Shown here: positions 1 to 13,020 of the stretch, in pieces | How positions within the stretch are numbered: the first letter of the stretch is position 1 | Layout: every line of letters starts with the position of its first letter | NCBI GenBank assembly: GCA_903912445.1 | Contig: CAIWHP010000191.1 | Coordinates: 262 to 64,261, forward strand | Source of the DNA: an uncultured Lentisphaerota bacterium | GTDB taxonomy: Bacteria; Verrucomicrobiota; Kiritimatiellia; CAIQIC01 | Direction of reading: 5' to 3' | Length of the DNA: 64,000 bases | Program-made: the position numbers and the translations under genes | The notes under the pieces: generated by a model | What the model was told of the DNA's origin: nothing | What the model saw: only the letters and a program-made list of their open reading frames with translations | Database searches by the model: none

Positions 1-654
1 CTCCCGATCCTGCGCGTCCAGTCTGCGGCCATCGCGGACAGCGCAAGGCGCTGGATCTGCGGCGTGCGGGACACTGGGCGGTTTGCCGTCTCGTTCTGCG
101 CTACACACGCCTGCGCCGCCAAAGCGTCCGACACCCGCTTACTCTGCGCGTGGCCTTGCACGCTGTCGTGTAGCGAAGAACTACACCACAGCGCGCACCG
201 CGCAGACGACTCGGGGCTAAACGCTTTCGCGGCGAACGCGACCGCCCCTCGCGCTGCGCGGACGGCCACGCTGGTGCCGCTGCTACGCCGTGGGGCTGGC
301 TGTTTTCCCGTCGAAAACAGAAACGCCCCACGGCTGGGCGCGGCAACGTGCGGGAGTCGGCCGTTTGGCGTCTTGGCTCGCTCCGCGCAGCCCGTTCCGG
401 CGCACCGCCCAGAGACCCTTCCGCCGCATCCGGCCGCCGCCGCAGACCGTGCATCGCGCAACGCTCCAGCACGGACTGCTTTCCCGGCGGCCAAATAGGG
501 GACAACCCCACACCCGTTTTCCCCTCTGCTGCGCATTCACACCTTTCCCCATAGCTGCTTCGCCACGGCTCAGTTCTGCCCGGCAGAACGTCGCCGGGTC
601 ATGGCGGCTGCTGTCGCACCCGCCCCGCCAGCCCCTATTTCAGAGCGCGACTCG

Positions 655-940
655 GTACGTTTGGGACGGGTAAAAGTCACTCGATCCAAAACCGCTCTCG
701 GCCTACCGTTTTCTTGGCTGAGTCAGTTTTAGGCGTCCCAACCGTCCCAAGATTTACGGCGGAGTAAAAGTTGGGACGCTTGGGACGGGTGTTTTCTTCC
801 CTTACGTATGGTCATGAAATCATCACTAATATAAAAGAGTTTGTTTCCCCCGTCCCAAGCGTCCCACGGAGGAAACTGACCACCACTTTCCAACCGACTT
901 GGTTTTAGGCGTCCCAAGCGTCCCGCGGAATTTTCCGAAC
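655..940. repeat. Cluster of iteron-like direct and inverted repeats (core CGTCCCAAGCGTCCCA / TTGGGACGCTTGGGACG, plus TTTTAGGCGTCCCAA and TTGGGACGGGT copies) in a locally AT-rich non-coding segment
   Basis: Read directly: the forward copy 'gcgtcccaaccgtcccaag' (~750) faces the inverted copy 'ttgggacgcttgggacgg' (~772). Further forward copies lie at ~850 ('cgtcccaagcgtcccac') and ~905 ('ttttaggcgtcccaagcgtcccg'). 'ttgggacgggt' occurs at ~660 and ~779, and 'ttttaggcgtcccaa' at ~757 and ~905. A run 'ttacgtatggtcatgaaatcatcactaatataaaagag' is locally AT-rich. No ORF with coding character covers the segment. Confidence 0.6.
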
Positions 941-1247
941 GATCTGGAATGTCGCCACGACCTTGCCGTAGGGCTGTCAGCATTCCTTAAAAAATCAGCC
1001 CCGATTTTCCTAAGGAACTGAGCACCTTTTCGACCCCTGACGCAAAATCCATATCATGGTAGCCATCCGCATGGCTCTTTTGCTGGCGAGCCGGCCAGAG
1101 GCCTTGCCGGGGCTTTTAGCGATGAACTTCTGTCTGGATCATCCGGTTGCCAACCACGGCGAGAAGGCCGAACATTTGAATGGCATCGTCGCCCATTCCG
1201 AGCCCACGGGGAGACGTTCACGCCCCCCTGTGAGAGTCACACCGGGA

Positions 1248-1349
1248 GAGACACACACTCACACGCCTATCTATATATAGGCGGTGTGAGGGTGTCTCGT
1301 GTCGGGACTTTCATGACATTCACGGCAGACTTTCACGGCCGTGAAAGTC
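1248..1349. promoter_or_regulatory. Two long palindromes: a ~51-bp imperfect palindrome centred on CTATATATAG (1248-1298) and a perfect 22-bp palindrome GACTTTCACGGCCGTGAAAGTC (1328-1349), about 120 bp upstream of the DUF5681-like gene. Candidate operator or origin-like site.
   Basis: Read directly: 'gagacacacactcacacgcctatctatatataggcggtgtgagggtgtctc' and 'gactttcacggccgtgaaagtc'. 'gactttca' and 'ttcacgg' also recur as direct repeats at 1306-1338. Confidence 0.55.
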
Positions 1350-1465
1350 TCGGACCGTTCTCGTGCTTGCCGTCTAAATCAGTGAAGGCGCTCCGTGATC
1401 GATGCGAACACAGCATTCAAGCAGCCTGCAGGTTGCTTTCTCCTGAGCTGTGTCATAATCAGGGC

Positions 1466-1870
1466 ATGAATGATTCTGCTAACAACTGCACACCGCAGAC
1501 GCGACCGTGGTTGTTCAAGCCTGGCGAGTCGGGCAATCCGGCCGGTGGCCGTAAGGGTCCGCTCGGCCGTGGCCGCGCCTTGATGGTTCTGGATACGATG
1601 CTGGCCGACGAAACAAATCTCGCCAAACTGCGCGAGGCACTCCAGGTCTATTTCGACAAGAGCCCCGTTCGCTTTTTCCGCCAGATCATCATGCCTCTGA
1701 TGCCGCGCGATTTGACGCTCAAATTCGGCGAAGAGGGTGTTGTCCAATGGACTTCGATCCTGCAAGCCTTCCCTGTGGCGCCCCAAGGCGACGCGAGTCG
1801 GCCGTCGACCGCGCTGACGAAGCCGGCGGAGAAAACGCTACATTTGGACGGAGGATCAAAAGTCCTTTGA
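1466..1870 (+). CDS. Small phage/plasmid-associated protein with a DUF5681-like motif (WLFKPGESGNPAGGRKG)
   Basis: ORF-track frame 1286..1870; the internal Met at 1466 (MNDSANN...) sits just before the conserved 'F-K-P-G-x-S-G-N-P-x-G-R-x-K-G' motif that I recall from phage-related DUF5681 proteins. It lies next to palindromes and a tRNA fragment. The true start is uncertain. Confidence 0.45.
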   Translation: MNDSANNCTPQTRPWLFKPGESGNPAGGRKGPLGRGRALMVLDTMLADETNLAKLREALQVYFDKSPVRFFRQIIMPLMPRDLTLKFGEEGVVQWTSILQAFPVAPQGDASRPSTALTKPAEKTLHLDGGSKVL

Positions 1871-2020
1871 GGCGTCCTTTTGGGCGGCTTTGGAGCAACT
1901 ATTTTAGACCCGAAATTGGTGGTCAAAAACATGCTACATGCTTTGCTACCATCCTGAGCGTTTCTTGCGGTTTACACGTGTTGCAACCCCTTGAAAATAC
2001 AGTGTTTTTGCATATCTTGA

Positions 2021-2064
2021 GCGATTATGAGTCCTCCGCTCTGACCAACTGAGCTACAGGCCCC
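2021..2064 (-). tRNA. Truncated tRNA: 5' half only (acceptor stem, D-arm, anticodon stem-loop with CAU), lacking T-arm and 3' acceptor. Likely an attachment-site remnant.
   Basis: The reverse complement reads GGGGCCTGTAGCTCAGTTGGTCAGAGCGGAGGACTCATAATC, a canonical tRNA 5' end with a 'TAGCTCAGTTGGTCAGAGC' D-arm and a CTCATAA anticodon loop. The downstream sequence has no pairing 3' anticodon-stem strand and no T-Psi-C arm. The surrounding ~200 bp is AT-rich. Confidence 0.55.
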
Positions 2065-2167
2065 TTGTTGTGGGCGGTCCACCGCGCAACGCGCCGAATT
2101 ATGGCAGCACGGGCGAGGCGTGGCAAGGGCGGGCGTGGCTGCGGCTGCGCGGGGTGCGTTGGGGAGC

Positions 2168-3946
2168 TCACTCGGCGACGGCCGGCGCGGCCTCGGGCGT
2201 GTCGCGGAACTGGAGGTCGTAGAGGCGCTTGTAGGTGCCGCCGAGGGCGAGCAGCTCGGCGTGCGTGCCGGTCTCGACGATGCGGCCGGCGTCGAGCACG
2301 ATGATCCGGTCGGCGTGCATGATCGTCGAGAGGCGGTGCGCGATGGCAAGGACGGTGCGGTGCGCCATGAGCTCGTCGAGCGCGGCCTGCACGGCGCGCT
2401 CGCTCTCGGTGTCGAGCGCGCTGGTGGCCTCGTCGAGCACGAGGATCGGCGGGTTGCGCAGGATCGCGCGGGCGATGGCGAGGCGCTGGCGCTGGCCGCC
2501 GGAGAGGCGCACGCCGCGCTCGCCGATGACCGTGTCGTAGCCCTCGGGCATCTCGCCGATGAAGTCGTGGGCGTGCGCGCGCCGGGCGGCCGCGATGATC
2601 GCGGCGCGGTCGGTGTCCGCGGTGCCGTAGGCGATGTTGTTGGCCACGGTGTCGTTGAAGAGGATCGTCTCCTGCGTCACCATGCCGATCTGCTGGCGGA
2701 GCGAGGACTGCGAGAGGTCGCGCAGGTCCAGGTCGTTGAGCAGGATCCGGCCGGCGGTCACGTCGTAGAAGCGCGGGACGAGGCTGACGAGCGTGGACTT
2801 GCCCGCGCCGCTGCTGCCGACGAAGGCGTAGCACTGGCCGGCCTTGACCTCGAAGCTGACGTCCTGCAGCACCGGCTCGTTGGGGTCGTAGGCGAAGCCG
2901 ACCTGCTCGAACGCGATGCGCTGCACCGGCCCGCTGAAGGCGATCGCGTTGGCGCGGTCGGTGACGCCGATGGGCGTATCGAGGAGCTCGAAGATGCGGT
3001 CGGCCGCGGCGGAGCTTTGCTGGATGGCGAGGTGCAACTTGCTGAGCTTCTTGACCGGCTGGTACATGATCAGCATCGCCAGCACGAACGTCAGAAAGTC
3101 GGCGCCGGGCATGTGCGTCCACTGCTTATAGAAGAGGACGAACGCGATGCCGATGGTCGAGAGGAAGACGATGATCGGCTCGATGGAGGCGTTGGCGCGC
3201 GTGACCTTCATGGCGCGCGAGAAGGTGGCTTTGGCCTCTTCGTTGAAGCGCTGGCGCTCATAGTTCTCCATGCCGAACGCCTTGACGATGCGCATGCCGG
3301 ACAGCGCCTCCTGCAGGACGGCGGCGAGATTGGCGAGGCGCGCCTGGCCGTCGCGGGCGGCGCGGCGGACCTTGCGGCCGAAATAGGCCACCGGCAGGAT
3401 GCAGATGGGGAACACCACGAGGGAAAACAGCGCCAGCTGCCAGTTCAGCCAGAGGATGTAGCCGACGCCGCCGATCAGCACGAACGGCTCGCGGATCAGG
3501 TCGCCGATGAACGTGCTGACCGCGTTCTCGATCATCATCGTGTCGTTGGTGATGCGGCTCATCAACTCGCCGCTGCGGCTGCGGCTGAAGTAGCCCATCG
3601 AGAGCTTGAGCGTGTGGTCGAAAAGCTTCTCGCGCATGTCGCGGACGACGCGCTTGCCGACCCACTCGATCATGTAGCGGCTGGCGAAGTCGCCGAGGCC
3701 GCGCAGCGCCGCGAGCACGGGCAGCAGCAGCGCGATCCAGAGGAGGTATTTCCACGGCAGGTCGGCCTGCTCGAAGAAGTTGCTGAAATTCTTCTGGATC
3801 GCCGGCAGCAGGCCGGTGGTCGAGCCGCCGAAGAGGATGCCGAAAAACGTGCCGAGCGCCAGCCGCGACTTGTAAGGCTTCGCATAGCTGAACAGCCGCA
3901 GCCAGACGGCGCGCTTGACGGGAGCGGGTGGAAGGGTGGGCTTCAT
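2168..3946 (-). CDS. msbA: ABC transporter, fused permease/ATP-binding protein (MsbA-like lipid exporter family)
   Basis: 592-aa ORF with six N-terminal TM segments followed by Walker A (GSSGAGKST), ABC signature (LSGGQRQRLAIARA), Walker B (ILVLDEATSALD) and an H-loop (AHRLST). This architecture is typical of MsbA-type exporters. Confidence 0.88.
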   Translation of the reverse strand: MKPTLPPAPVKRAVWLRLFSYAKPYKSRLALGTFFGILFGGSTTGLLPAIQKNFSNFFEQADLPWKYLLWIALLLPVLAALRGLGDFASRYMIEWVGKRVVRDMREKLFDHTLKLSMGYFSRSRSGELMSRITNDTMMIENAVSTFIGDLIREPFVLIGGVGYILWLNWQLALFSLVVFPICILPVAYFGRKVRRAARDGQARLANLAAVLQEALSGMRIVKAFGMENYERQRFNEEAKATFSRAMKVTRANASIEPIIVFLSTIGIAFVLFYKQWTHMPGADFLTFVLAMLIMYQPVKKLSKLHLAIQQSSAAADRIFELLDTPIGVTDRANAIAFSGPVQRIAFEQVGFAYDPNEPVLQDVSFEVKAGQCYAFVGSSGAGKSTLVSLVPRFYDVTAGRILLNDLDLRDLSQSSLRQQIGMVTQETILFNDTVANNIAYGTADTDRAAIIAAARRAHAHDFIGEMPEGYDTVIGERGVRLSGGQRQRLAIARAILRNPPILVLDEATSALDTESERAVQAALDELMAHRTVLAIAHRLSTIMHADRIIVLDAGRIVETGTHAELLALGGTYKRLYDLQFRDTPEAAPAVAE

Positions 3947-4413
3947 GCCGGGTCCGGCTTTCCGCCCTGTGCAGCCTGCGGGGGGAGGCGCTTCAGGTAT
4001 GCCACATCCTGTAAATCTTGCGGCCGGCCGGCGCGTTGCTTGGACGCGATCAGGTCGTCCAGGCCCAAGCAGCGCGTCGGAGTACCGTTTTCCGTGGCGT
4101 ACTCTTGCGCATGTTGCTCCGCGAGGTCAAAAGGCGGCAGCCCCGGGCCACCCAGATGAAATTGGATGACGCCCCATTGGGTCTGATAAGTTTGGATGGA
4201 GTTCTCGCCGCGCGGCCCTAACGGATCAAGCGGGCAGTCGAGTTCGTCGCCCAGCGCGGCTTCGATACGGCGTAGATTATCCACATCGCGGGGCGGAATA
4301 TAAAAATCCCAATCCATGGAAAAACGCGGCAACCCCGCGAGCCGGACAGCCTGTCCGCCAATCAAGAGGTAGCGCACGTGCCGGGTGGCAAAGCGCTGGA
4401 TCACTTCGTCCAT
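3943..4413 (-). CDS. Minimal nucleotidyltransferase (Pol-beta superfamily)-like protein. Its stop overlaps the msbA start.
   Basis: Internal Met (MDEVIQRF...) of ORF 3943..4461. It carries 'YLLIGGQAVRLAGLPRFSMDWDFYI', which matches the hG[GS]-x(9-13)-DhD nucleotidyltransferase pattern. The C-terminal 'LGLDDLIASKQRAGRPQDLQDVAYL' recurs in small NTase proteins. There is a 4-nt overlap with msbA and a 13-nt overlap with the upstream small ORF. Confidence 0.45.
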   Translation of the reverse strand: MDEVIQRFATRHVRYLLIGGQAVRLAGLPRFSMDWDFYIPPRDVDNLRRIEAALGDELDCPLDPLGPRGENSIQTYQTQWGVIQFHLGGPGLPPFDLAEQHAQEYATENGTPTRCLGLDDLIASKQRAGRPQDLQDVAYLKRLPPQAAQGGKPDPA

Positions 4414-4595
4414 TGCGCGCCTCCCCTGGCCACCAGTTCGGCCAGCAAGGCTTGCTTCCACGTGTTCAGTTCCTCGTAGGAGCTGAATTTACGGTGTCCG
4501 AAACGCGGCAGATTGGCCAGCCGGGGCAAAGCCGTGGCCCGGGGCTTGGCCGCCCAAAAATCCAGCTTGGCGTTTATGTCATCCGTGCGTTTCAT
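4401..4595 (-). CDS. Small hypothetical protein (64 aa), translationally coupled to the downstream nucleotidyltransferase-like gene
   Basis: ORF 4401..4595 (MKRTDDINAKLDFWAAKP...) overlaps the NTase start by 13 nt and lies in the same orientation. I recognise no domain, so support is weak. Confidence 0.3.
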   Translation of the reverse strand: MKRTDDINAKLDFWAAKPRATALPRLANLPRFGHRKFSSYEELNTWKQALLAELVARGGAQWTK

Positions 4596-9929: not shown

Positions 9930-12410
9930 ATGGCAGTCAAGGTCACACGTTCGTCGGGCTGGCGCTGGAGCTGGGGCATCATGGTGCTCGCGCTCGCGGC
10001 TCTGGTGTTGCTCAGCCTCGTCTCGTTCCGCCCCGACGATATCGCGGCGAACAAGGAGCCGCCGAACTCGCCGGCGCTCAATTTCATCGGGCCGGTGGGC
10101 GCGTGGACGGCCTACCTGCTGCTGATGGGCCTCGGCGTGGGTGCCTACGTTTTCGCGGTCGCGCTGTTCGTGCTCGGGCTGTTCATGGTCTTCCAGCACG
10201 AGGGCCGGGTCTGGCCGAAGGCGATCTGGCTGCTGGTGATGACGCTGGGCATTGCCGCGCTGATCGAGATCGGGTCGGACCCGTGGATCGGGGTGAAACT
10301 GCGGCTGAACATCGGCACGGCGGGCGGCGCGCTCGGCCGGCTGCTGACCTATGACTGGCTGGTGCTGTGGATGGGCACGGTGGGCACGGTCATCCTGATG
10401 CTCGCGCTGCTGCTCGTCGGTCTGTTCCTGGTGTTCGAGTGGCATCCGCTGCTTCTCGCGCGGGCCGGCAAGGATATCGGCGGGAAACTGCTGGAAAAAT
10501 GGCAGACGTCGCGCAAGGCGCACGCCGAGGACCAGACCCGCGTCGAGGGCGAGCAGCGCGATGTGGCCAAGCGCCGCCGCCGGCTCGAAGAGGCCATGAA
10601 GGACAACGAGAAGGCCGCCACCCAGCCGGCGCTGCCGCTCACGTCCGAGCTTGCTCCGCCGCCCGCCGCTGCCAAAGAAAAAGAAGAAGTGGCGGCCAAG
10701 GCTGTCGCGGAACCGCTCGCGGAAGCCGCCGTGGACCTGGCCCCCGCCGACGAGGACGAGCTCGACGTGCCGGTGCCCGCGCCGAAGCGCAAGCCCGCGC
10801 CGCGCAAGAAGCCGGAGCCGCCGCCGCCGCCCGCACCGCTGGCGCATCCCGGCAACTATGTGCTGCCGCCCGTCGAGATGCTCGATCCCGTGCCGCCGGA
10901 AAAAGACCGTACGCTCGACAGCGACTTCACGGGCGGGGCGCAGCTGCTCAAGGAGACGCTCGCGGAATTCGGCATCGACGTGGATGTGACCAATGTCGAG
11001 CAGGGGCCGGTGGTCACGCGCTACGAGCTGCTGCCGGCGCCGGGCGTCAAGGTGGAGAAGATCACCGCGCTCAGCAACAACCTGGCGCTGAACATGAAGG
11101 CGGAGAGCATCCGCGTGCAGGCGCCGATCCCCGGCAAGGGCGTCGTGGGCATCGAGGTGCCGAACGGTTTGCGGGTCGCCGTCTATTTGCGCGAGGTGCT
11201 GGAGAGCGACGCGTGGAAGAACACCACCGCCGCGCTGCCGCTGGCGCTGGGCAAGGATGTCGGCGGGCGGGTGATCGTGGCCGACCTGGCCGATATGCCG
11301 CATCTGCTGATCGCCGGCGCGACGGGCTCGGGCAAAACGGTCTGCATGAATTCCGTCCTCGCGGGGCTGCTGATGAGCCGCACGCCGGACCAGATGAAGC
11401 TGATCCTCGTGGACCCGAAGATCGTCGAGTTCGCCGCCTACAAGGATCTGCCGCACCTCGCCTGCCCGGTGATCACCGAGGCCAAGAAGGTCGCCTTCGG
11501 CCTGCGCTGGGCGATCCAAGAGATGGAAAACCGCTACAAGCTGTTTGCCAAGGTCCGCGTCCGCAACATCAAGGACTTCAACAAGCGCGTGATCGTCAAG
11601 CAGCAGGAGCTCTTCACCGATCTCGCCCCGGCCGTCCCGCCGGCCACCCCGCCGGTCGAGGGCGCCGAGGTCGAACCGGTGGCCCCGCCGCCGCCCCCGC
11701 CGAAGCCGGAGGAGGTCATCCCCGACCGGCTGCCCTACATCGTCATCGTCGTGGACGAGCTGGCCGACCTGATGCTGGTGGCGCAGGCGGAGATCGAGAA
11801 CCAGATCGCGCGCCTCGCGCAGATGAGCCGCGCGACGGGCATCCACCTCGTGCTCGCCACGCAGCGGCCCTCGGTCAACGTCATCACCGGCACGATCAAG
11901 GCCAACTTCCCCTCGCGCATCGCCTTCCAGGTGGCGCAGAAGGTGGACAGCCGCACGATCATCGACGCGATGGGCGCGGACAAGCTGCTGGGCAAGGGCG
12001 ACATGCTTTTCCTGCCGCCGGGCGTCGGCCGCTTGATGCGCGCGCAGGGTACGTTGACGACCGATGCCGAAATCCACAGCATCGTCGATTTCCTCAAGCA
12101 ACAGGGCCAGCCGCAGTACGTCTCGGCGCTCAAGGAGAAGGTCGAGGAGCGTCCCGGCGGCGACCTGCCGGACATGGACGAGGACGACGAATTGATCGAG
12201 CAGGCGATCGAAGTCATCCGCCAGACGAAGCGCGCCTCGACCAGCGGCGTGCAGCGCCGGCTGAAGATCGGCTACACGCGCGCGGCCCGGATCATGGACA
12301 TCCTGGAGGAGCGCGGGCTCGTCGGCCCGGCCCAGGGCTCCGACCCGCGGGAGATTCTGATAGATTTGGACGGCGATATTCCGCATACTCGCGACGGCGA
12401 AGTGGCCTGA
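9930..12410 (+). CDS. ftsK: DNA translocase FtsK
   Basis: N-terminal TM segments and a Pro/Ala/Glu-rich linker. The motor domain carries Walker A (GATGSGKT), Walker B (IVIVVDELADLM), 'ATQRPSV' and a C-terminal gamma/winged-helix domain (RRLKIGYTRAARIMDILEERGLV). The start is chosen at MAVKVTRSS; 9897 is possible. Confidence 0.9.
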   Translation: MAVKVTRSSGWRWSWGIMVLALAALVLLSLVSFRPDDIAANKEPPNSPALNFIGPVGAWTAYLLLMGLGVGAYVFAVALFVLGLFMVFQHEGRVWPKAIWLLVMTLGIAALIEIGSDPWIGVKLRLNIGTAGGALGRLLTYDWLVLWMGTVGTVILMLALLLVGLFLVFEWHPLLLARAGKDIGGKLLEKWQTSRKAHAEDQTRVEGEQRDVAKRRRRLEEAMKDNEKAATQPALPLTSELAPPPAAAKEKEEVAAKAVAEPLAEAAVDLAPADEDELDVPVPAPKRKPAPRKKPEPPPPPAPLAHPGNYVLPPVEMLDPVPPEKDRTLDSDFTGGAQLLKETLAEFGIDVDVTNVEQGPVVTRYELLPAPGVKVEKITALSNNLALNMKAESIRVQAPIPGKGVVGIEVPNGLRVAVYLREVLESDAWKNTTAALPLALGKDVGGRVIVADLADMPHLLIAGATGSGKTVCMNSVLAGLLMSRTPDQMKLILVDPKIVEFAAYKDLPHLACPVITEAKKVAFGLRWAIQEMENRYKLFAKVRVRNIKDFNKRVIVKQQELFTDLAPAVPPATPPVEGAEVEPVAPPPPPPKPEEVIPDRLPYIVIVVDELADLMLVAQAEIENQIARLAQMSRATGIHLVLATQRPSVNVITGTIKANFPSRIAFQVAQKVDSRTIIDAMGADKLLGKGDMLFLPPGVGRLMRAQGTLTTDAEIHSIVDFLKQQGQPQYVSALKEKVEERPGGDLPDMDEDDELIEQAIEVIRQTKRASTSGVQRRLKIGYTRAARIMDILEERGLVGPAQGSDPREILIDLDGDIPHTRDGEVA

Positions 12411-12414
12411 ACTT

Positions 12415-13020
12415 ATGGACACCATCGGTCAACAACTCAAGGCGGCGCGTGAGCTCAAGGGCGTGACGGCGTCGCAGGCCGCCGCGGCAACGCACCTGAA
12501 GGTGCAGCACGTCGAGGCGCTCGAGCGCGACGACTACAGCCGTCTGGCCGTGCCGACCTATGCCAAGGGCTTCCTCAGGATTTACGCGGAATACCTCGGC
12601 CTGGATCCCGCGCCGCTGCTGCGCGAATACACCGCGCGTTTCGTCGGGCAGCCGGTCGCCGCGCCCGCGGCCACGCCCGCGGCGCCGGCGGACGGCTCGG
12701 TCTTCAAGTCGCCGCGCCGCCCGCTGGCGCTGGCGCCGCCGCGCCTCGCGTTGCCGCCGGAACTGGTGACGCGCCTGCTGCAGGGCCTCGCGGCCGTCGT
12801 GGTGGTGGTGCTGCTGGTCTGGGTGGTGCGCTCCGGCTGCCAGCGTGCGCCGCGCCCGCCGGCCGAGGCGCCGCCGCCGTCCGTCGTCACCAATCAGATC
12901 CACGCCGAGGTGCCGCCGCCGCTCGTCGCGCCGGCGAAGCGCGAGCCGGCGGCGCCGTGGGTCCTCGTCAACGAACCGCCGCCGCCCTACCTCAAGCGGA
13001 GCGCCGCGAGTACGCCATGA
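12415..13020 (+). CDS. RodZ-like helix-turn-helix cytoskeletal protein (XRE HTH plus TM segment)
   Basis: The N-terminus 'LKAARELKGVTASQAAAATHLKVQHVEALERDDYSRLAVPTYAKGFLRIYAEYLGLD' matches the RodZ N-terminal HTH region. It is followed by a Pro/Ala linker and a TM helix (AAVVVVVLLVWVV). Confidence 0.6.
   Translation: MDTIGQQLKAARELKGVTASQAAAATHLKVQHVEALERDDYSRLAVPTYAKGFLRIYAEYLGLDPAPLLREYTARFVGQPVAAPAATPAAPADGSVFKSPRRPLALAPPRLALPPELVTRLLQGLAAVVVVVLLVWVVRSGCQRAPRPPAEAPPPSVVTNQIHAEVPPPLVAPAKREPAAPWVLVNEPPPPYLKRSAASTP

Follow-up and report, generated by a model that had tools for sequence, protein, structure and literature searches.

What is the DNA that lies against a broken tRNA gene downstream of msbA in an uncultivated Verrucomicrobia-like bacterium, and how did it get there? 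We addressed this question in a 64-kb stretch of a metagenome contig (hereafter the window; 64,000 nucleotides of CAIWHP010000191.1), in which a tRNA fragment separates housekeeping genes on its right from a region on its left that carries an iteron array, two palindromes and a small gene. We conclude that the chromosome of this member of the Planctomycetes-Verrucomicrobia-Chlamydiae (PVC) group probably contains a phage-derived element acquired by horizontal transfer, of which window positions 1–2022 form the right-hand end. The element is visible over 2 kb of the window only, the window starting within it. A preliminary description, made from the letters of this DNA alone, had listed the main features of the region, all of which we found, with coordinates within 1–3 bases and well above chance; its overall interpretation stood as to the foreign, phage-derived DNA, the tRNA split at the anticodon arm and the origin-like iterons, but was incomplete on mechanism. 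Comparison contigs and loci are labelled L001–L214 throughout (L005 is ENA ERZ27248961 k141_721583; L004 is JGI 3300045018).

A tRNA gene interrupted in its anticodon arm

The chromosomal flank of the element begins with a gene for an msbA-type ABC exporter (2168–3946, minus strand), the product of which is 92–94% identical to MsbA on long Verrucomicrobia-like contigs of the PVC group. Next to it, also on the minus strand, lies the 5' fragment of a tRNA-Met/Ile2(CAU) gene, comprising nucleotides 1–41, that is, the acceptor strand, the D arm, the 5' stem and loop of the anticodon arm and two further nucleotides. The tRNA half reported previously is therefore present, at 2063–2023 rather than 2064–2021, and the tRNA model of Rfam recovered it as a 3'-truncated match (16.9 bits). 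The host promoter of the tRNA, TTGCCA-17-CATAAT with a TG element (2098–2126, minus strand; 10 of 12 matches), is the best promoter match of the region. ARAGORN called no tRNA anywhere in the window, and no tRNA 3' half was found anywhere in the 64 kb.

Intact copies of the same gene exist elsewhere: the fragment is identical at 41 of 41 positions to tRNA-Met(CAT) genes of L001–L003 and L154, and a scan of genome contigs found the same tRNA in three unrelated metagenome-assembled genomes. L154, which has about 90% nucleotide identity to the window, shows the site without the element. There, msbA and the same TTGCCA-N17-CATAAT promoter are followed by the intact tRNA-Met(CAT) gene (11865–11941), and then by a terminator and ordinary chromosomal genes. 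Homology between the two sequences (blastn) covers window positions 3916 to 2023 and breaks off precisely at nucleotide 41 of the tRNA, after CTCATAATC and 2 nt past the 7-nt anticodon loop; 1–2022 is therefore inserted or replaced DNA. This comparison bears out the earlier placement of the element to the left of approximately 2021 and of the housekeeping msbA to the right, and shows that 1–2064 is not shared core genome of related strains. GC content falls from about 0.70 to 0.49–0.61 over 650–2020.

The locus thus presents three features by which Islander recognises islands in tRNA genes, namely a tRNA end fragment at one boundary (nucleotides 1–41), a crossover at a canonical sublocation (identity ending 2 nt after the anticodon loop) and an unoccupied target in a related genome (L154). 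Islander further expects a full-length tRNA, regenerated in the same orientation downstream of the 5' fragment at the other boundary, and a tyrosine integrase gene within the island. With its junction mapped to the nucleotide and its empty site in hand, the locus shows cleanly how a mobile element can occupy the anticodon arm of a tRNA gene, in an uncultivated lineage of Verrucomicrobia-like bacteria for which, to our knowledge, very few mobile elements have been described.

Such a junction could also arise if a metagenome assembler had wrongly fused phage and chromosomal sequence at the tRNA. The source is indeed a metagenome contig, and the repeat array described below, where every related contig breaks off, is a region that is hard to assemble. 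However, TGTTTTTGCATATCTTGAGC, the sequence on the element side, has no stretch of k-mer length in common with the tRNA that could have prompted a false join, which makes a chimera unlikely, and related copies join chromosomal DNA cleanly in five other contigs, so that we regard an artefact as highly unlikely. A tRNA split by an intron was ruled out, as neither a group I intron nor any other Rfam hit was found in 1–3000 (E <= 10) and the window has no 3' half.

The locus downstream of msbA is variable among close relatives, because L153, the closest of them (MsbA 94% identical), has no tRNA here and carries in place of tRNA-Met an HNH endonuclease gene (11792–12475). As for the identity of the tRNA, its acceptor stem has the pairs C4-G69 and C5-G68 (window 2023–2063; L154 11865–11941), which we take to resemble the TilS determinants of tRNA-Ile2; the CAU tRNA may be an AUA-decoding isoleucine tRNA, not an elongator methionine tRNA. 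One similar phage tRNA is annotated as tRNA-Ile.

Route of insertion

The position of the break suggests that a tyrosine integrase would have made its crossover within the anticodon loop and displaced the 5' fragment of the tRNA, a configuration found in a minority of islands. The anticodon arm is the commonest crossover sublocation of tRNA-targeting integrases (2083 of 3919 Islander islands), and the displaced fragment is the 5' one in 159 of these 3919 islands, versus the 3' one in 3760 (PMC4383910). The truncated tRNA had previously been called the expected scar of integration into a tRNA gene; the break in the anticodon arm and the foreign DNA to its left agree with this, but a displaced 5' fragment is the rarer outcome. 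The 5' 41 nt of the tRNA are still joined, with their promoter, to msbA. At the left end of the element, beyond the window, this configuration predicts a complete tRNA restored by the integration and probably also an integrase gene.

Several observations weigh against this account. The visible 2 kb contain no integrase gene and the window contains neither a second attachment (att) site copy nor a regenerated tRNA; as the window starts within the element, any of these would lie out of view, and what can be seen is a tRNA that is simply broken. Furthermore, related copies of the element end at other kinds of site. The non-coding tail on the attachment side (1871–2022) is homologous to the tails of L113, L004, L147, L148 and L150 up to TTGAAAATAMAG (1991–2002) and diverges from them over the last 20 nt; in the closest relatives the conserved tail extends for 125–150 bp and is followed by unrelated DNA. 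These five relatives, with nearly the same tail (...CAGATTTCCAATCCTYGGAAA), abut five unrelated non-tRNA flanks, which makes strict tRNA specificity doubtful for the element family. Their shared terminus contains a short palindrome, TTTCCAA-TCC-TTGGAAA, and GA-TTATGAG-TCCTC of the window lies in the same register as their GA-TTTCCAA-TCCTT, which suggests a short recombination core differing between subtypes.

These termini are what would be expected if the insertion were not tRNA-specific and the family used many target sites that are short or poorly defined. Either a recombinase of low specificity, with a core like GATTTCC-AATCCTT-GGAAATC as its substrate, or a transposition event would then have hit the tRNA incidentally and truly disrupted the gene. 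We nevertheless consider this unlikely. The break falls exactly at the anticodon loop, a classic integrase target (PMC4383910); the difference between the last 20 element bases of the window and those of the five copies may mean another att specificity; and one relative of the element's gene, in L128, adjoins an intact tRNA-Ala. The ends, moreover, are not TG...CA, and the iteron origin described below argues against replicative transposition of the Mu type, which we considered unlikely on these two grounds although relatives encode a portal and a protease similar to those of Mu. Nor did the L113-type terminus prove to be tRNA-Ser(GGA)-like, a reading left unsupported by flanks with neither a D arm nor acceptor sequence and by ARAGORN, which found nothing.

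Two truncated copies deserve description. In L128 (384–849) the relative of the gene stops after about 90 residues, approximately 150 bp from the intact tRNA-Ala(CGC), the 3' end of which faces the gene; this is the second association of the gene family with a tRNA gene. In L004 (641–1120), gene P0007 fuses a pectate-lyase-like signal peptide and N-terminus to the C-terminal 80 residues of the element's protein, and is followed by a normal element tail; either a deletion beside the element or an assembly chimera would account for it.

An origin-type module in the iteron block

We confirmed the iteron segment of approximately 300 bp (GC 0.49–0.50) and its five double iterons. The pattern CGTCCCAAGCGTCCC, with up to 2 mismatches, occurs five times in 654–924 and nowhere else in the 64 kb, and none of 100 shuffles reaches five. 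The array opens with a degenerate double iteron (GGTACGTTTGGGACG; 654–668, minus strand), corresponding to site B of a further unit of which it is the remnant, and its GGTACG variant is also found in the units of L005 and L113. One complete unit follows, made up of site A (734–748, plus strand), site B (773–787, minus strand) and site C (851–865, plus strand), the latter two also recovered as pattern matches, and a terminal double iteron (910–924, plus strand), equivalent to a site at L005 855, closes the array. Sites B and C fall in the arms of a perfect 18-bp inverted repeat (772–789 and 849–866), each arm with two GGGACG iterons, separated by a 59-bp core of about 35% GC (CCCTTACGTATGG...TAATATAAAAGAG); as a DNA hairpin the structure folds with z = -5.4.

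Two kinds of published origin have a similar anatomy. Origins of Staphylococcus aureus pathogenicity islands (SaPIs) consist of iterons directly downstream of rep, with an AT-rich centre and at least two iterons per side in opposite directions (PMC9371898). The origin of pRN1 is a stem-loop of about 100 nt (21-nt stem, 58-nt loop) located 3' of a gene encoding prim-pol, superfamily 3 (SF3) helicase and winged-helix domains, and an origin of this type has also been proposed for phage BIP-1 (PMC4234260). The segment 772–866 has the AT-rich centre flanked on each side by at least two iterons in opposite orientation.

Searching IMG/VR for inverted doublets (GGGACGNNTGGGACG, 40–70 nt, CGTCCCANNCGTCCC) retrieved the inverted GGGACG doublet module in 22 viral contigs, and in all 22 a long open reading frame (ORF) points towards the module, with its 3' end 25–150 bp away. 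Ten of these ORFs, scanned against Pfam and PHROGs, are primase/SF3 helicases, with DUF5906 or D5_N cores accompanied by Prim-Pol or RepB_primase, or with the PHROG annotation 'DNA primase'; seven more either match a known primase-helicase by blastp or share the same module and ORF spacing, and the ORF of L145 gave no family hit in the Pfam/PHROG scan. Near-matching modules in the same arrangement with a primase-helicase are present in L043 and L084, and in the phage contig L043, where small and then large terminase genes follow, the module has the same layout as the core of the window (GGGACGGG-N10-CCTTACGTATGG...TAATATAAAAGAG...CCCGTCCC). A looser search found inverted GGACG-type modules with 40–70 nt spacers in 82 viral contigs (IMG/VR loci L155–L214, L017–L146). 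The variable base beside GGACG is the same on both arms in 52 of the 82, where about 5 would be expected by chance, and all four bases occur, so that the iterons come in specificity variants.

From this strong evidence of synteny we conclude that 772–866 is an origin-type module. The initiator would bind the iterons through its C-terminal winged-helix domain and melt the AT-rich core. It had been proposed that the iterons and palindromes together formed an origin or operator region; the iteron block is origin-like by synteny, and the palindromes, discussed below, are conserved. Phage and plasmid BLAST searches with 1–2064 returned the tRNA piece as the sole match. Matches to the 15-mer iteron in viral contigs were mostly chance hits or 9-bp coding tandem repeats (L024, L036, L049, L055, L080) and were discarded.

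One feature sets the window apart from every viral example and counts against our main reading: no initiator gene adjoins the origin. Whereas the module lies directly downstream of the presumed initiator ORF in 22 of 22 viral contigs, the sequence before it in the window (1–650) is non-coding and holds no remnant of a primase-helicase. The initiator would have to be encoded further to the left or be supplied in trans.

The missing initiator also favours taking the iteron block as something other than an origin: operators arrayed for regulation, a centromere-like site used in partition, or a decoy by which the initiator of a phage is titrated. In addition, the units are tandemly multiplied in relatives, with a period of about 166 bp, which resembles the centromere and incompatibility arrays of F (sopC) and P1 (incA), and the third site, A, of each unit lies outside the inverted pair. 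Against this, in every one of the viral contigs a long ORF, which is a primase-helicase in the 17 that were scanned or matched by blastp, ends shortly before the module; the module, moreover, has no consistent position relative to promoters and is built like the SaPI and pRN1 origins described in the literature (PMC9371898, PMC4234260). We therefore judge a non-origin function very unlikely.

Tandem origin units in relatives

Four relatives that carry the same gene (L005, L113, L148 and L149) begin inside tandem units of approximately 166 bp. Each unit is built as A(+), 39 nt, B(-), 78–81 nt, C(+), with 46–59 nt to the next A, and the A-39-B-78-C spacing of the window is identical in all four. 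L005 (1–870) has five units and a terminal site, in four iteron variants (CGTACC, CGTCCC, CGTCCT and CGTCCG), and within each unit all three sites have the same variant. Because assemblies evidently break in the tandem arrays, no related contig shows the left part of the element. The array of the window, by comparison, consists of the degenerate B site (654–668), one complete unit (734/773/851) and the terminal site (910). The AT-rich cores of the arrays (L005 1–870; also L113 240–740) fall into two types, and the type-B core had no match in viral contigs.

The GC-rich left part of the element

The first 650 bp or so had been described as lacking a convincing coding signal, and we found no codon periodicity there: GC by codon position over 1–640 is 0.69/0.67/0.72 in every frame, versus 0.63/0.43/0.96 for msbA. 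The segment is GC-rich (0.68–0.72 over 1–640) and, a property absent from the preliminary description, 1–650 folds far better than its shuffles (z = -9.3 on the plus and -8.7 on the minus strand). By self-comparison with BLAST, it contains nested inverted repeats (58–138 with 350–428; 108–240; 287–334). A conserved hairpin motif of about 60 nt, AGGGGACAACCCC..CCCGTTTTCCCCTC..TTCAC..TTTCCCC (497–560, plus strand), is near-invariant in the window, L113, L119, L120 and L121, and in the last three it lies approximately 170 bp upstream of the small gene. Since positions 420–650 are also homologous to L113 57–240, at least the right part of the segment (420–650) belongs to the element family.

Rfam gave no hit in 1–650, and the 60-nt motif had no match in viral contigs. 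A miniature inverted-repeat transposable element or genome-wide repeat is unsupported, as the segment has no second copy either elsewhere in the window or in the 100 kb of related chromosome searched (L153 and L154). A pseudogene of a primase-helicase was ruled out by the flat codon-position GC and by tblastn with 13 primase-helicases, which returned iteron translations only.

A small gene in small-terminase position

The single gene of the visible element (1466–1870, plus strand) encodes a 134-aa protein with an N-terminal motif of DUF5681 type, rich in Gly, Lys and Arg (LFKPGESGNPAGGRKG), and a helical core (FFRQIIMPLMPRDL). The ORF and motif had been described as DUF5681-like and phage-associated, and so they are, but the likeness is restricted to the short N-terminal motif. 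The hit to DUF5681 (PF18932; E = 7.7e-4, 20.4 bits) falls below the 27.5-bit gathering cut-off and spans profile positions 5–25 of 77, which does not make the whole protein a member of the family. The window protein and its relatives share with DUF5681 the motif F-x-PG-x-SGNP-x-GR-x-KG, and 6 of 14 relatives hit the model (best E-value 2.5e-8); they differ in that, of the 77 profile positions, only those from about 5 to 35 ever align, and in that the Pfam model does not include their conserved helical core (FFRxIIMPLLP).

A word-indexed protein search found seven relatives only, and a profile search with hidden Markov models in 1.84 billion representatives returned 623 representative clusters at E <= 1e-3. 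A metagenome scan yielded 18 loci with the gene. In nine of these (L114, L116, L119, L120, L121, L123, L124, L126 and L127) a homologue of the large-terminase gene terL (Terminase_6N) follows directly, so that the gene occupies the position of a small-terminase gene (terS); in L120 a Mu-like portal and protease are encoded further on. No terL follows the gene in the window, L113, L004, L147, L148 or L150.

The protein would act in DNA packaging as a small terminase (TerS). Against such a role stand several negative results: there is no terL anywhere in the 64 kb, and the protein bears no likeness to known TerS proteins, with no annotated PHROG hit and no PDB profile hit. Alignment with the TerS of L043 (hhalign) gave a probability of 0.2%, and Foldseek with the AlphaFold model, a poor one (mean predicted local distance difference test score, pLDDT, of 60.7), returned nothing at E <= 0.001. 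Neither sequence nor fold similarity to characterised TerS proteins was therefore found, and the TerS role is assigned from gene position only.

Two loci have distinctive surroundings. In L129 (313–900), a gene that in translation starts like a serine recombinase, with a resolvase-type N-terminus, begins about 115 bp after the terS-position gene. In L120 (7957–12260), two MgtC-family genes flank the terS-terL pair ahead of the portal and protease genes; ordinary chromosomal genes lie directly upstream and there are no replication or lysogeny genes, so that either a defective prophage or something akin to a gene-transfer agent may be represented here.

Conserved sites around the small gene

Between the iteron array and the gene, a non-coding spacer with a terminator-like hairpin at 1061–1076 (925–1240) is 85–89% identical to L005 and L115. 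Over these approximately 300 bp L005 is far more similar to the window than are the proteins, which are only about 50% identical, and this points to mosaic exchange. The ORF at 1056–1280 has no start codon in L005 and is therefore not a conserved gene.

Both palindromes reported in this region were confirmed. The longer one, imperfect and 51 bp in length (GAGACACACACTCACACGCCTAT / ATAGGCGGTGTGAGGGTGTCTC; 1248–1298; DNA fold z = -5.8), is conserved in L113 and L147, has three changes mirrored on both arms in L005, and has counterparts of the form CACAC..CTATA..GTGTG downstream of the gene in L117 and L118. As its position thus varies relative to the promoter, it would fit a cis site for packaging or protein binding better than a promoter-proximal operator. 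The perfect 22-bp palindrome (GACTTTCACGGCCGTGAAAGTC; 1328–1349; z = -3.4) ends a cluster of GACTTT/TTCACGG repeats (1306–1349), also conserved in L113 and L147; L005 and L148 have CCAAAGTC direct repeats in its place. The small protein may recognise the palindromes and the GACTTT repeats.

A promoter-like sequence, TTGCTT-N15-CATAAT (1433–1459, plus strand), ends 6 nt before the ATG of the gene, and L113 (1235–1276) and L147 have TTGACA-N15-CATAAT at the corresponding place. It was not listed in our promoter scan because the scan allows only 16–18 nt spacers. The distance of the hexamers from the ATG suggests a leaderless or near-leaderless transcript.

Remnant or satellite

The visible end is sparse enough to ask whether it still belongs to a mobile element. 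It could be the decayed remnant of a prophage or satellite after deletions, with the tRNA permanently broken, the origin orphaned and nothing functioning as a mobile element. In keeping with decay, there is one gene in 2 kb, one complete origin unit and a degenerate site (654–668) compared with five units in L005, no initiator adjacent to the origin and no regenerated tRNA within view, and truncated copies exist elsewhere (in L004, where a pectate-lyase N-terminus precedes what is left of the gene, its 3' part; in L128, beside tRNA-Ala). However, the reading frame of the gene is undamaged and its promoter conserved, and loss of the tRNA would be costly if this were the only tRNA-Ile2-type gene of the cell. 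Furthermore, the ordered architecture of GC-rich region, motif, array, spacer, palindromes, gene and tail recurs at 72–90% identity in L113, L147 and L005, which come from other metagenomes, and this argues for selection on the whole unit; the same architecture is also seen in L148 and L149. On balance we find a mere remnant possible, if somewhat unlikely.

A more specific form of the phage-derived element that we favour is that of a non-autonomous phage satellite of PVC-group bacteria. It would have no initiator of its own but one or several initiator-less tandem origins, each matched to the primase-helicase of a different helper, and its own small-terminase-like protein, with a nearby recognition site, would divert helper packaging; the window would hold a one-origin version in a tRNA anticodon arm. 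We put this forward as a tentative and, in this full form, rather improbable model. If it is true, initiator-less origin arrays of multiple specificities would let a small element borrow replication from several helper phages; otherwise, should such arrays not be real, the window contains an ordinary prophage or satellite end.

On the far side of msbA, the window has two small minus-strand ORFs of 172 aa and 64 aa before a thioredoxin-reductase-like gene (3943–4595), where L153 and L154 have only about 100 bp. The 172-aa ORF has weak similarity to DUF6036/AbiEii nucleotidyltransferases, and the segment looks like a small insertion of toxin-antitoxin type.

Comparison with known systems

The element is a further case of known classes, being an integrated phage-derived element with a SaPI/pRN1-type origin and a terS-position gene. 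Less usual are the origin without an adjacent initiator, the tandem origin units of differing iteron specificity in relatives and the terS-type gene without terL, three features that a satellite, improbable as we judge it, would fit.

Like the tRNA-integrating islands and prophages catalogued in Islander and by the sublocations of Williams 2002, it has a tRNA end fragment at its boundary, an anticodon-loop crossover and a site that is empty in a relative (PMC4383910). It differs from most of them in the displaced 5' fragment, seen in only 4% of Islander islands, and in that sister copies sit at non-tRNA sites.

The origin shares with those of SaPIs and other phage-inducible chromosomal islands (PICIs), which use self-loading Rep or Pri-Rep helicases, the short iterons, the AT-rich centre with at least two opposed iterons per side and, in the phage relatives of the module, the location directly downstream of the initiator ORF. 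Here, by contrast, there is no initiator ORF within 650 bp, the GGGACG iterons form two doublets with a third upstream site, relatives have tandem units with differing iteron variants, and the host belongs to the PVC group and is not a Firmicute. The stem-loop of about 100 nt (18-bp stem, 59-nt loop) recalls that of pRN1, and in viral relatives it similarly lies just 3' of a Prim-Pol/DUF5906 helicase gene; pRN1, however, is an archaeal plasmid with a stem lacking recognisable doublet iterons and with an adjacent replication gene. The GGGACG inverted-doublet module is apparently a widespread origin signature, found on the 3' side of primase-helicase genes in dozens of contigs from uncultivated viruses, and as it can be searched for directly it could help to annotate replication modules.

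Satellites of the PICI, P4-like and capsid-forming PICI (cfPICI) kinds are defined by a core set of integrase, regulator (AlpA/Stl-type) and primase-rep genes within about 8–20 kb that lack a full structural module. Compared with satellites that have their own small terminase (SaPI TerS-S; PICIs and cfPICIs) or that depend on a helper for functions (P4), the visible 2 kb differ in having no integrase, regulator, primase or capsid-remodelling gene, and in a TerS assignment that comes from synteny only. As in those satellites, no large terminase or structural genes are in view, and an origin is followed by a terS-position gene near the att end.

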